DNA from: Scenedesmus sp. PABB004
Taxonomy: Eukaryota
NCBI GenBank assembly: GCA_014905635.1
Contig: JABVCE010000015.1
Coordinates: 248,001-312,000 of the forward strand
DNA length: 64,000 nt
Reading direction: 5' to 3'
The notes beneath the pieces were generated by a model. It did not search any database, was not told the origin of the DNA, and saw nothing but the letters and a program-made list of their open reading frames with translations. Below, one piece after another: positions 57,101-64,000 of this stretch; the first letter of the stretch is position 1, and every line of letters starts with the position of its first letter. A program made the position numbers and the translations under genes.

Positions 57101-59326
57101 GTGAGCTGCACAGACAGCGCGTCAGCCACCGCGGCGCTCACGATCAAGCCCACGCCCGCGCCGGCCCTCACCGCGCCGGTGACCGCGCCGAGCGTGTGCA
57201 GCGGCACTAGCGGCAGCGTGGTCTTCACCTTTGGCCTGTCCAGCTCGCTGACCGGCGGCTCTTTCACCTACGGCGTGACGCCTGCTGCCGGCCCTGCCTG
57301 CTCCGCCGAGGCCATCGACGGTGCGGCTTGTCGCGCCCGCACGCGTGCTGCTGCTGGTGCACCCCCGCCCCCCGCCCCTCCTCTCACACACGCGCCCACG
57401 CACACGTGCGCTGCAGGTGGCGTGAACGTGACCTGCAGCCCGACAGGCAACTGGGCAACCGGCACTACCACCGTCAACCTCACCGCCAGCCAGACGGTCA
57501 ACGGCTGCACCGGCGAAGACAGCAAGGCCACGACGCTCACAGTCAACCCCACGCCGGGCGTGACCGTGGCCCCGGTCAGCGCGCCGACCGTGTGCGCCAA
57601 CGTCGCCGACGGCGCGACCGCGGACTTCACGTTTGCGGTCAGCAGCGACCTGGCCGGCGGCACCCTCACCTACACGCTCCAGGAGACCACCCCGGCCATC
57701 TGCGCAATCAGCAGCCCCTCGCCGGCAACCACCAGTGAGCGGCTGCGCGCTGGGCGCGTGCTGCGCGCGCCGGCGCCGGCGCGCGGGGCGCGCCCGCGGC
57801 AGGCCGTCGCGGCCGCCTGCTGACGCCCCCGCCCGCCCGCCTGCCGCGCGCCTGCGCGCCGCCAGGCGCTGTGGCGGCGGGCACCAACTACACGGTCACT
57901 GTCACGTGCACCAAGAGCGGCGGCACATGGCCTACGGCGCCCTTCACCGTCGCGCTCAAGGCCGAGCACGCCAGCGCTGCCGGCTGCTCCGCCGACGCGA
58001 CGGCGACGTCCGCCGCGGCCACGGTCAACCAGCCGCCCACGCTCACCACGTCGGTCGGTGCCGCGCCCCTCATCTGCGCCAGCGACGCCGCCGCCAAGAC
58101 CTTCACCGTGACTGTGCGCAGCAGCAAGGCCGGGACCATCAACGTCGTGCCGACCGCCCCCGCGAGCGCGGGCTGCGGCAGTGTCACGGGTGCGGCGCGG
58201 AGAGGCAGCAGCGCTCGGCACGCGCACCTGGCCTGCCCCGCACGCGCGCGGCGCGCCGGCTGCCGCCAGCGGCTAACCCGCGGCCCCGCCCCTGCACACC
58301 CGCGCGCCCCGCAGTGACTGGCACGGCGAATGTCGACGCCACCGCTGTCGTGACCTGCACGCCCACCAGCAACTGGGGCGCCGTGGGCTGCTTCACCTTG
58401 GGCGTGACGGCCAGCCAGACCGACACCAACGGCTGCACCGGCACGGCCACCGCAACGCGGCCGGCTACCGTGTCCACCTGCACGAGCGCGAGCGGCACTG
58501 CCTATGCCTTCAGCGACGCCACCAGCTTTGTGCCGGCGACATCCAGGACCTCCAGCAATGCCACGTGCTTCAAGAGCACGGACATTGGCTGCAGCAACTG
58601 GTGCGCGGCCGCGCCGCGAAGCCGCCCCGCCCGCGGGCAGCGACGCGCCCTGCGGCCGCCGCGCAGCGCAGCCGCTCACCCGCGCGCCGCGCGCCGCGCC
58701 GCAGGGGCTGGCGCAACCTCTGGAAGGAGGGTCCGGCCAGCAAGGAGTATGTGCTCATCACCGGCGCGGGCAACAACATGTGCGGCGGCGGCGCCAACGC
58801 TGGCACGCTCAAGGTGTCGTGCGCCAACACCGTCGCCAGCGGCTCTGTCTTCACGTTTGAGGGCATCGGCGGCGGCCAGACCACCACAGGCGCGGTCGAC
58901 ATGCACTTTTATGCCGGCTGCGCGCCGGCACCCAAGACCAACTCCAAGCGCTGCACGCCCGGCGCCGGCGCGTTTGGCGGCGCGTCCAACGGCTCACCCG
59001 GTTTCGGCGGCAACGTCGTGCCGCAGCTGCAGCAGTTCAAGGCCCCGACCGCCGGGCGCGCGCCGTACAGCGTGACGCTGACCGGCTGCAACTGCAACAG
59101 TGTCTACTGGGTCTTCCATGAGAGCGGCAACTACGTGATCTACGGCGACGACGTGCCCTCGTGCTCAGCCAGCCAGGCGACGACGCTGGCGGCGTTCCAG
59201 GCCCTCCAGTCGAGCCGGCGCGCGCCCGCCCAGCCGACCACGGGCGGCGCCAAGCCCGGCAAGGGCAGGCCCGGCAGGAAGCCCGGCAAGCCCGGCAAGA
59301 GGCCGGGCAAGTCGCCCGCGCCCTGA
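54197..59326 (+). CDS. Large secreted Cys/Thr/Ser-rich repeat protein, paralog B (6 Ig/PKD-like repeats)
   Basis: MSVVKRGSARPLLLAAALALLAGGAAA; colinear with paralog A, same intron positions, one extra repeat (about 57545-58030) and same KPGKRPGKSPAP* end. Confidence 0.85.
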
Positions 59327-61465: not shown

Positions 61466-61913
61466 TCACGCCTTGTGCTGCGCCAGGCGCGCGAGCAGCT
61501 CCCTGCGCTGGCCCTTCACGCTCAGGCCGCGCGCCTTGCACAGCTCCTTGAGCTGAGCTGTCGGCAGCGCCGCCACGTCGGCCGCGCCCGGCTCCGCCCC
61601 CGCAGCCGCCGCGACGGTGCGCTTGGCGTCGGCCTTGGACACCTGCGCGGCGGCCGCGGCGCGGGCGCGGCGGCGGGGCGCGCCGGAGCACGCTCAGCGC
61701 GCGGCCGACCGTGCCGGCCGCGTGCGCCGCCGCGCGACGCGCCAGCTGCGCCCGCCGCGCCTGCTTCTGCTTGAGCCAGCCCGGCGTCTCCGCCTCGGTG
61801 TGGGCGCGCTTGATCTTGGACGCAATCGCCTCGTCCTCAGAGTCCAGCGCGCGCGGCGCCGCGGCGCCGCGCGACACAGTGCGGCTGCGCGAGCGGCCGT
61901 TGCCGCCGCGCGG

Positions 61914-61944
<31 letters not shown>

Positions 61945-62894
61945 TCCGCGAGCGCGGGCGCGGCGGTGGCGGACGCGATCTCCTCGGCCTTCAGCACCGC
62001 CGCGTCGGCCGCGGGCGGCGCGGCGGCCGCGACGGCGGCCTCCGCCGCGGGGGCCGCCGCCGCCTCGCCGTCCTCGACCTCCGCCGGCGCGGGCGGCGCC
62101 GGCACCGGCAGCGTGCCCGGCAGCACCTCGTGCGCGCCGCCCTCCCAGCCGTCGCGGACAGTCAGCTCGACTGCGCCCGCAGCGGCGGGCGCGCACAGCT
62201 CCAGGTTGTCGGTCGGCTGCCACGCCCGCACCTGCGCGCGGCGCGCGGCGCCCGCTCGACGGCGCGCTCGCCGCCAAAGCCGCGGCTCGCCTTGGCCGCG
62301 GCGCGCTGCCGGTGCGTGGCTCGCTGCCCGCGCCGCCGCTGAGCCGCCCACCTCCTTGACCTCAGCCTCGCCGGCGCGCACGATGTACTTGTACTCGAAG
62401 CGCGCCCTGGCGGCGGCGGCGGCGGCGGCGCGGCGACGGCGGCGGCGGCGGCGGCAGCGGCGGCGCGGGGCGAGGCGGCGCGGCGCGGCGCGGCGTGGGC
62501 TCGGCCCGCAGGACGCGCGCGCGCGCCGCGCGCACGGACGCGTGTGACACGCGCGCGCCGCGCACCCCGCGGGCAGCTCCGCCTCGGCGGTCCAGACGTC
62601 GCCCTCGTTCCACGCCATCGGCACGCAGGCGTCGACGTTCCAGCTGCCGAGCGCGTCGGCCTCGCCCACGAGGCAGACGTCCTCGCCCCACTCGACGTGC
62701 TTGGGCAGCTGGAAGGTCACCTTGGCCTTGGCGGCGGGCGGCGCGTCGCCGGCGTCGAGGGACGGCTCCGCGTCGGGGCGCTCCTCGGGCTGGAAGCGCG
62801 CCGGCGGCGCCAGCCGCGCCGGCGCGCGCCGCGCCGGGCGCGGGCCGAGCAGCGCGGCGGCGCCGCCCGAGCGGGCGAGGAGCAGGTTGGCCAT
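61466..62894 (-). CDS. Predicted plastid protein with CBM20 starch-binding domain and C-terminal SAP domain; 4 exons
   Basis: Transit-like MANLLLARSGGAAALLGPRPARRAPAR; CBM20 KVTFQLPKHVEWGEDVCLVGEADALGSWN..MAWNEGDVWTAE..FEYKYIV..WQPTDN; SAP LPTAQLKELCKARGLSVKGQRRELLARL; TGA at 61466-61468. Confidence 0.85.
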
Positions 62895-63391
62895 GGCTGC
62901 TGGGAGGGCCTGGCGGTGGCGGGCGGTGGCGGGCGGTGGGCCCCCAGATGCGTGCGCCCCGCAGCAACGCGGCGCCTGATCGGGCCCGCGGCAATCGCCG
63001 TGACCGCCCGACACCGCACTGGAGAGCCCCAGCGGGCAGCGGTCGGCGCCGGCGGCCCCAGCGCGCTGCGCCGGTGCGGCCGGGGCGAGCTGCCCGGCGC
63101 TCCGGGGCCCAGTGGCCTTGCGGCCGCCGCGCGGCGGCTGTCCCGGCGTCCCACGATTGCCGGGAGCACGACCGTAGCGAGCCGCAGGCAGCCGAGTGCG
63201 CACCTGCGAAAGGGCCAACTTGCTGTTGTCGGGCCGGGCGATCGACGCGTCCGACCTGCGTGGGCGAGGTGAGCTGGCCTGCTGCGGTCTGGACGTCGCG
63301 GGCCGCGCAGCAGCCGGCGGGCGGCGCGGCGGCGCTGGTTGACGAGCGGCGGTTGAGCCGCTCAGCAGCCGGCGGGCGGCGCCGCGACGGC

Positions 63392-64000
63392 TCACGCGGC
63401 GCCGCCGCCGCCGACGCCGCCGCCGCCCAGCAGCAGCACGTCCGGGCCGCCGCCGCCGCCGCCGCCCCACGCGGCCGCGAGCACGCCGCCCGCGCCCTCG
63501 GCGCCCGCCGCGCACGCGGGCTCGTCGCCCGCGTCCCGCGGCGGCAGCAGGCCGGCGGTGCACACGAGCAGCTGCGGCCGCGCCGGCGCGCCCACGCACT
63601 CGGCCGCGAGCCGCGCGGCCTGGCGCGGCTCGCCGGGCGCCCAGCGGCGCAGCCGCACGCGCTCGCACACGATGCCCGGCTCGGCCGCCGCCAGCGCGGC
63701 GGCAAAGCCGGCCTCGTACGCGGCGCCGCCGCCGGCGGGGCCCGGCATGACCGCGGTCGCCCGTGCCGCGCCGCGCCACACCGCCACGGCCGCGAGCAGC
63801 GCGGCCGCGGCGCCGGCCGCGGCGAGCGCGCCCGCGCCCGTGCCGCCCGCTCCGCCGAGGCCGCGCGCCGCGGCGGCGGGCGGCGCGGCCGGCGCCGGCA
63901 GCAGCAGCGCCGCGCGGCCGCGGCGCTCGCCGCCCAGCGCGAGCCAGGGCGGCAGCAGCAGCGCGCGCCGCCCCAGCAGCTGCAGCGGTGCGGCGCCCGC
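63392..64000 (-). CDS. 3' part of an Ala/Gly-rich hypothetical protein running off the window edge
   Basis: Open frame from the edge to TGA 63392 (LQLLGRRALLLPPWLAL..PGIVCERVRLRRW..PQLLVCTAGLLP); no family recognised with confidence. Confidence 0.5.
   Translation of the reverse strand, partial: AGAAPLQLLGRRALLLPPWLALGGERRGRAALLLPAPAAPPAAAARGLGGAGGTGAGALAAAGAAAALLAAVAVWRGAARATAVMPGPAGGGAAYEAGFAAALAAAEPGIVCERVRLRRWAPGEPRQAARLAAECVGAPARPQLLVCTAGLLPPRDAGDEPACAAGAEGAGGVLAAAWGGGGGGGPDVLLLGGGGVGGGGAA

Follow-up and report, generated by a model that had tools for sequence, protein, structure and literature searches.

A CBM20–SAP gene of Scenedesmus sp. PABB004 and its possible role as an adaptor between starch and nucleic acid in the chloroplast

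A gene near one end of the DNA studied here raises the question of what a protein that is likely to be plastidic might do with a predicted starch-binding domain (CBM20), a terminal SAP motif and no enzyme. The window, by which we mean the whole stretch of 64,000 nt that was analysed, covers positions 248,001–312,000 of the forward strand of contig JABVCE010000015.1 of Scenedesmus sp. PABB004 and has a G+C content of ~72–84%; the host assembly that was searched is eukaryotic and comprises 40 Mb in 80 contigs. An earlier note, made from the letters of this DNA, had proposed a starch–nucleoid tether.

Gene structure and the last splice junction

The coding sequence is assembled from four exons on the minus strand (Table 1) and has 1032 nt, giving 343 residues and a stop codon. 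The public gene model P0001 (1316 aa) agrees in all four exons and in the GC donor, and joins them to upstream methyltransferase sequence. The unspliced 378-aa frame gave no match when used as a protein query, and a search of longer proteins gave three.

Table 1. Features of the CBM20–SAP gene in window coordinates, listed in the direction of transcription
Feature	Coordinates	Strand	Remarks
Probable 5' UTR	62895..63255	-	With intron 62910-63203; read by eye against P0001, which takes the region as coding; A+T content raised at 63200-63300
Exon 1	62566..62894	-	Start codon, presequence, first half of CBM20 (residues 1-110); Pfam and orthologue starts
Transit-peptide-like stretch, residues 1-34	62793..62894	-	Rich in Ala/Arg/Pro/Leu; first acidic residue not before position 37
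CBM20, residues 57-160	62136..62726	-	PF00686; interrupted by introns 1 and 2
Intron 1	62407..62565	-	GT-AG, 159 nt, phase 2; position common to L032; used by P0001
Exon 2	62352..62406	-	CBM20 part with K116; same in P0001
Intron 2	62232..62351	-	GT-AG, 120 nt, phase 0; in P0001; absent from L032
Exon 3	61761..62231	-	CBM20 end and most of the Ala/Pro linker; no Pfam match
Conserved linker motif	61761..61841	-	Ends P/S-x-W(280)-L/F, directly before intron 3; query, P0010, P0012, P0184, L032
Intron 3	61643..61760	-	GC-AG, 118 nt, phase 0; SAP readable only if spliced
Exon 4	61466..61642	-	Short spacer, SAP motif, stop codon
SAP motif, residues 309-341	61475..61573	-	PF02037, C-terminal

Exon 3 and the SAP motif lie in different frames, so that the motif requires removal of intron 3; retention of this intron gives a 410-aa reading without SAP. 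The third-position G+C of exon 4 is 0.93 in the SAP frame versus 0.56 in the intron-retained frame. SAP would also stay in frame with either of two GT donors, at 61709 and 61691, that lie downstream of the GC donor (61760); they were rejected on the grounds that orthologues splice at the position equivalent to 61760 and that P0001 also uses the GC donor there. Two transcript-derived proteins of Flechtneria rotunda, P0013 and P0184, each flagged as complete, share one sequence as far as the residue equivalent to Gln285 of the query. Past this point P0184 continues into a SAP motif above the cut-off (35.4 bits) and P0013 continues with a Val and has no SAP, which, judged from the protein alone, would fit read-through of a GT donor. 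The genomic orthologue L032 has a GT–AG phase-0 intron (1330–1568) five residues past the shared linker Trp; beyond it, a short stretch reads like the beginning of SAP before the contig ends. Because the Flechtneria isoforms and the L032 intron share the site, we take the position of intron 3 to be conserved and the GC donor to be a local variant. The junction 61761/61642 of the earlier note is thus backed by the orthologues as well as by P0001.

At the other end of the gene, the orthologues P0010 and P0184 have the same N-terminus as the query (M-A-x-L-L), and all 15 family members examined carry a net positive charge over their first 30 residues. Cz09g19100, the Chromochloris relative, appears in a supplement table of PMC7896298 as predicted to be chloroplast-targeted, with a score of 2.88. 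The N-terminus is thus transit-peptide-like, as described before, and a plastid location of the protein is likely.

A class I methyltransferase gene in the same orientation (63392–64000 on the minus strand, together with L031) ends ~500 nt upstream. In Monoraphidium the model P0031 (882 aa) likewise joins a methyltransferase to the CBM20 orthologue, its two parts being 57% and 52% identical to those of P0001, and the presequence in its middle matches the stand-alone protein P0185. If such fusions were genuine, the segment studied here would be the C-terminal part of a longer methyltransferase protein, and hence neither non-catalytic nor necessarily plastidic; that two models join the same methyltransferase to CBM20, and that a strong GT donor overlaps the upstream stop codon at 63395, would agree with this. 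We nevertheless regard a true fusion as extremely unlikely: the complete, transcript-derived orthologues P0184 and P0185 open with a basic presequence at the corresponding Met, an intact presequence sits in mid-chain in both fused models, and a common gene order with a short gap accounts for both predictions. The tight order of the methyltransferase and CBM20–SAP genes is conserved, and the fusions in P0001 and P0031 are read as prediction errors across it.

A bicistronic transcript with the upstream methyltransferase, although possible, was set aside as unsupported; in the available supplements of the polycistron paper Cz09g19100 occurs only in the targeting table. The TGTAA signal is missing, which is uninformative since the whole window holds only six. 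Further upstream, ~260 nt occur twice in L031 (window-equivalent 66086–66349 and 67997–68260) and match the start and residues 299–381 of P0001; this looks like a local duplication of the start of a DNA-methylase-like gene. On the plus strand, at 57564–59326, a convergent gene with Thr/Ser/Cys-rich frames and a Lys/Pro/Gly repeat tail resembles a secreted or wall protein.

The two domains and their spread

The CBM20 profile matches exon 1 with E = 1.5e-11 (44.4 bits against a Pfam cut-off of 23.3) and the spliced form in P0001 over profile positions 2–89 of 97 (E = 5.4e-18, 65 bits). Mapped to the glucoamylase starch-binding domain 1ac0 through P0002 (40% identity to the query over the whole length), Trp85, Lys116 and Trp132 align with starch site 1, the residues of which we take to be Trp543, Lys578 and Trp590 in the A. 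niger glucoamylase numbering; Asn137 (site 1), Trp69, Trp101 and Trp157 are also in place. The site-1 residues are invariant in all 20 aligned relatives, an alignment that has 13 invariant columns and does not include the query. Of the aromatics that presumably form site 2 (Tyr527 and Tyr556), the first position is taken by Trp69; the Tyr556 loop is shortened and Trp95 lies nearby. An AlphaFold2 model of the orthologue P0184, built from 20 sequences, has a pLDDT of 94–97 over CBM20 (the modelled chain is not the query itself). All 46 fold matches listed for it are CBM20-bearing chains, and the best small-domain match is the CBM20 of human STBD1 (8x8k; rmsd 1.2, E = 1.6e-9). No catalytic Pfam family was found in the four exons of the query or in nine SAP-positive relatives. 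The domain is therefore predicted to be a complete, starch-binding CBM20, and both the presence of its starch-binding Trp/Lys residues and the lack of a catalytic domain are as the earlier note had them. Among the relatives, P0094 (609 aa) has two CBM20 domains and an endonuclease/exonuclease/phosphatase domain, pairing starch binding with a possible nucleic-acid enzyme.

The linker had been called acidic and Ala/Pro-rich. The second part of this description holds; the first does so only weakly here (net charge −4 over residues 161–290), the linkers of orthologues being more acidic (e.g. −13). In the P0184 model it is disordered (pLDDT ~40–60). The P/S-x-W-L/F motif at its end is absent from P0002 and P0019. 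A basic Arg/Ser patch (61880–61905 on the minus strand, residues 239–249) recurs in L032 and P0002 and is possibly a site of control by phosphorylation.

The SAP motif in exon 4 scores 36 bits (E = 5.1e-9) against a cut-off of 23.9, and 37.6 bits (E = 1.6e-9) on the spliced form in P0001. A sequence search of the PDB matched it to the SAP structures of Ku70, Hcc-1 and Tho1. In the P0184 model it forms two helices (354–363 and 372–385; pLDDT 96) and, where SAP is present, the alignment retains the fold-defining Leu and Gly across four classes. The last 35 residues of the query have a net charge of +6. The terminal SAP is thus real at the level of Pfam, conserved residues and the orthologue model, and is predicted to be a nucleic-acid-type module with its basic surface kept.

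How common is this pair? In the host genome, which returned at least 20 CBM20 and at least ten SAP matches, a SAP match was found within ~1.5 kb flanks at one of 20 CBM20 loci, that of the query. A phmmer search with the part of CBM20 encoded in exon 1 returned 1034 matches at E ≤ 0.001, of which 150 were listed. The Pfam scan covered 90 of 155 proteins (P0001, 61 proteins of under 150 aa and three cluster mates of P0003 were left out): SAP scored above the cut-off in nine, was present in decayed form in Scenedesmus P0010 and, at a sub-threshold 17.2 bits, in Chromochloris P0019, and was absent from 79, including the near orthologues P0017, Monoraphidium P0031 and P0034. A family profile picks up the decayed motif of P0010 (E = 6e-6). 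Some SAP-less rows are truncated or reflect intron read-through: P0070 ends inside SAP, and P0013 is the isoform described above.

Names were looked up for 23 proteins. The closest named relatives are sphaeroplealean green algae, and SAP carriers include Scenedesmus sp. NREL 46B-D3, Chromochloris zofingiensis Cz09g19100, Flechtneria, Trebouxia sp. C0006, two Tetraselmis species (two CBM20 domains and SAP) and two Chloropicon species. Many of the named carriers come from transcriptomes (MMETSP), so that CBM20 and SAP are expressed on one mRNA in several lineages. We take the classes concerned to be Chlorophyceae, Trebouxiophyceae and Chlorodendrophyceae, to which Chloropicon adds Chloropicophyceae. 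Chloropicon contains a starch grain and lacks a pyrenoid (PMC5656628); the pair is therefore not pyrenoid-specific, which weakens the option, raised before, of a link to the pyrenoid sheath. A scan of metagenomes with P0184 confirmed none of 57 stretches, and a further scan gave seven loci from 308 stretches, of which L032 was the one examined. In the ESM Atlas (clusters of at least 50 members) only CBM20 clusters were found, none of which lists SAP; the top lead was a Streptophyta cluster (score 0.88). With nine carriers among the 90 relatives scanned, and named carriers in four chlorophyte classes, the check on distribution shows a family, and by sequence we consider CBM20+SAP to be a real, conserved chlorophyte architecture.

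A shared architecture need not mean a shared role, and SAP could be a dispensable passenger, of a kind that green algae add to many plastid proteins, gained and lost on an otherwise ordinary CBM20-only starch factor. On a CBM20 tree made by a quick method (128 rows, 104 columns; cluster mates, P0007, proteins of under 150 aa and domains of under 75 aa excluded) the query groups with P0010, P0012, P0013 and P0002 (support 94). The 15 SAP-bearing rows need 11 label changes, at least two of them forced by well-supported branches; the tree is otherwise poorly resolved and does not separate a single origin with losses from repeated gains. These changes, the SAP-less Flechtneria isoform and the occurrence of SAP on PP2C7 phosphatases of Mamiellophyceae (PMC4524716, where CBM20 and SAP sit on different PP2C7 proteins) would suit a passenger. 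However, besides the poor resolution of the tree, several of the rows without SAP are incomplete or continue into the intron, SAP is more similar to the query than the linker is in six of seven relatives, and repeated independent gains would themselves suggest selection. We therefore think a passenger SAP very unlikely.

The basic end appears to be kept in relatives even without SAP. The last 25 residues of 13 SAP-less relatives sum to +54 versus −29 for shuffles (0 of 5000), although the 13 were picked by eye after the pattern had been seen and the comparison has no outside control. Protein C-termini are generally basic.

Possible function

Our preferred reading is that the gene encodes a non-catalytic chloroplast adaptor, nucleus-encoded, that would join starch to nucleic acid. 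We put its probability at about 0.45. It is favoured by Pfam-level matches to both CBM20 and SAP, the lack of a catalytic family, the site-1 residues, the conservation of the pair and the greater identity of SAP than of the linker. On this reading the protein would be imported into the chloroplast and CBM20 would dock on the surface of the starch granule, with the long flexible linker holding the basic SAP out towards the stroma. There SAP would bind nucleic acids of the plastid irrespective of their sequence; nucleoid DNA is the most likely target, and RNA a possible one. A lone SAP is expected to bind weakly, and we therefore propose that many copies arrayed on one granule would supply avidity. 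The SAP peptide of SAF-A is reportedly surface-dependent in its binding, gaining avidity by the display of many copies. The outcome would be nucleoids held at, or spaced around, starch grains, and retention of intron 3 could yield a form without SAP.

Published work on relatives of either half gives further support. The SAP domains of Chlamydomonas CNS bind DNA and, with a transit peptide, suffice for localization to nucleoids (PMC4758235). The Chromochloris protein Cz09g19100 reached its highest levels in the two wild-type conditions with glucose (log2FC 0.91, p = 1.6e-4; PMC11258321), and Chromochloris cultures with glucose contain more starch than those without. Nucleoid targeting by the CNS SAP domains, a chloroplast-predicted Chromochloris relative that rises with glucose and the retention of basic ends thus favour an adaptor. 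It is weakened by the restriction of SAP to a minority of relatives, and by DNA binding in CNS/PEPS1 being known for four SAPs together. Also against it, SAGA1 localizes without starch (PMC11649565), so that CBM20 need not decide location, and no member of the orthogroup of Cz09g19100 is among the rows listed of a Chlamydomonas nucleoid table.

The same basic ends could instead belong to a scaffold on the starch surface, with SAP or a Lys/Arg tail attaching to something other than nucleic acid, for example a partner protein, phosphorylated glucan or the anionic lipids of thylakoids. SAP is swapped for a plain basic tail among close orthologues, the linker carries a conserved Trp motif, and the second modules of SAGA1, LCI9 and BSG1 bind partners other than nucleic acid. 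In PMC11258321 Cz09g19100 is grouped with BSG1, Cre09.g415600, Cre06.g269650, Cre10.g450500 and AT5G01260; of these, Cre09.g415600 is at the starch sheath (PMC10473226), Cre06.g269650 is near the pyrenoid matrix (PMC10473203) and Cre10.g450500 co-migrates with PSII intermediates (PMC12164590), locations that would suit a scaffold. This orthogroup is, however, an automated grouping by CBM20; moreover, SAP keeps its fold-defining Leu and Gly in four classes and folds confidently, which would be needless for a patch of charge. We consider a scaffold of this kind unlikely, but still worth keeping in mind.

The polarity could also be reversed: SAP would hold the protein at the nucleoid, and CBM20 would catch malto-oligosaccharides in solution. 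This could serve to initiate granules next to nucleoids, in the manner of MFP1 with PTST2 in plants, or to signal carbon status to gene expression in the plastid. The nucleoid targeting by CNS would agree with this, as would the presence of SAPs in PEPS1 (Cre15.g635650), where they are part of a subunit of the Chlamydomonas plastid RNA polymerase (bioRxiv 10.64898/2026.06.23.732312), the rise of the Chromochloris protein with glucose and the precedent of MFP1 (with PTST2) as a nucleoid-associated factor of starch initiation. Against this, the strong conservation of CBM20, set beside one SAP that is at times decayed, points to starch as the main anchor, and the query has neither a coiled coil nor an enzyme-binding domain; a reversed polarity seems to us distinctly unlikely.

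Returning to the adaptor, a bolder form of the proposal would have a single-chain tether, kept in the various chlorophyte classes, that fastens nucleoids to starch and whose DNA-binding end is turned on or off through splicing of the last intron. We rate this as improbable; were it true, starch would position the plastid genome, and the genome would be shared out with starch at chloroplast division. The question bears on the positioning and partition of nucleoids in algal plastids and on a structural role for starch beyond storage and the pyrenoid sheath. The family has been concealed by fused gene models and a missed last intron. The protein is small, single-copy in this genome and present in the tractable Chromochloris, where its SAP is weak.

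Relation to known systems

CNS/PEPS1 and pTAC3 are plastid-targeted, nucleoid-localized SAP proteins that bind DNA non-specifically, and the SAP motif is the feature that they share with the query. CNS/PEPS1 is a 280-kDa polymerase subunit with four N-terminal SAPs and no CBM, whereas the query has 343 residues and one C-terminal SAP. In this genome a separate gene (G000:C1:1477629-1479148; L022, L023, L027) encodes four SAPs after a presequence-like stretch and is probably the counterpart of CNS/PEPS1; the query is therefore not that gene.

Arabidopsis MFP1, which we take to work in partnership with the CBM48 protein PTST2 and which to our knowledge has neither CBM20 nor SAP, also ties a reported nucleoid-binding protein to the site of granule initiation. 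It is a thylakoid-anchored coiled coil that relies on a separate CBM48 partner for glucan binding, and differs in this from the single chain of the query. In PMC10801857 MFP1 is a site marker of granule initiation and a 2003 paper is cited for its binding to nucleoids. The view in the earlier note that a link between starch and nucleoid had not been described was thus too strong, MFP1 being a partial precedent, although a fusion in a single chain still appears to be undescribed.

Among CBM20 proteins, DPE2, PWD, glucoamylase and the laforin/SEX4-like proteins combine CBM20 with a catalytic domain in one chain, which the query does not. Human STBD1 has a non-catalytic CBM20 like that of the query, but has no SAP and is not plastidic; its ligand is glycogen, which it connects with membranes and autophagy. 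Proteins of the AT5G01260 type, which have CBM20 only, resemble the query in their presequence, CBM20 and low-complexity tail; the Streptophyta cluster lists no SAP. AT5G01260 is the Arabidopsis orthologue listed for Cz09g19100 (PMC11258321) and is mentioned in a paper with chromatin in its title. In the literature searched, which covered few subscription papers, we found no description of CBM20 and SAP in one protein or of a starch-binding SAP nucleoid protein of algal chloroplasts; Cz09g19100 was not mentioned in the main texts, and the term SAP does not occur in the LCI9 and Ulva preprints. The CBM20+SAP architecture is apparently undescribed.

The closest likeness is to SAGA1/SAGA2, LCI9, BSG1 (Cre02.g091750) and Cre09.g394510, which as described likewise have a transit peptide, an N-terminal CBM20, a flexible linker, a second module and no enzyme. 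Their second module is a coiled coil, a Rubisco-binding motif or a t-SNARE (Cre09.g394510), where the query has SAP; coiled coils accompany CBM20 in BSG1 (PMC6374437) and in LCI9 (preprint). Downstream of its CBM20 the query has, judged from its composition and the P0184 model, no coiled coil but an Ala/Pro-rich, disordered linker. None of the seven Trp residues of the query fits, by eye, the Rubisco-binding motif, for which we assume the consensus D/N-W-R/K, and no CSLinker Pfam match was found in it. In Chlorella ohadii the CBM20 protein P0141 has repeats (residues 258–291) that match CSLinker (E = 4.6e-8), and may tie starch to Rubisco in the pyrenoids of Chlorella. The Chlamydomonas-type adaptors are known from pyrenoid-bearing algae, whereas CBM20+SAP also occurs in the pyrenoid-less Chloropicon. 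We would place the query with the non-catalytic CBM20 adaptors, its second module being of a predicted nucleic-acid type: the known members join starch to Rubisco, membranes or enzymes, and the CBM20+SAP protein points to nucleic acid.
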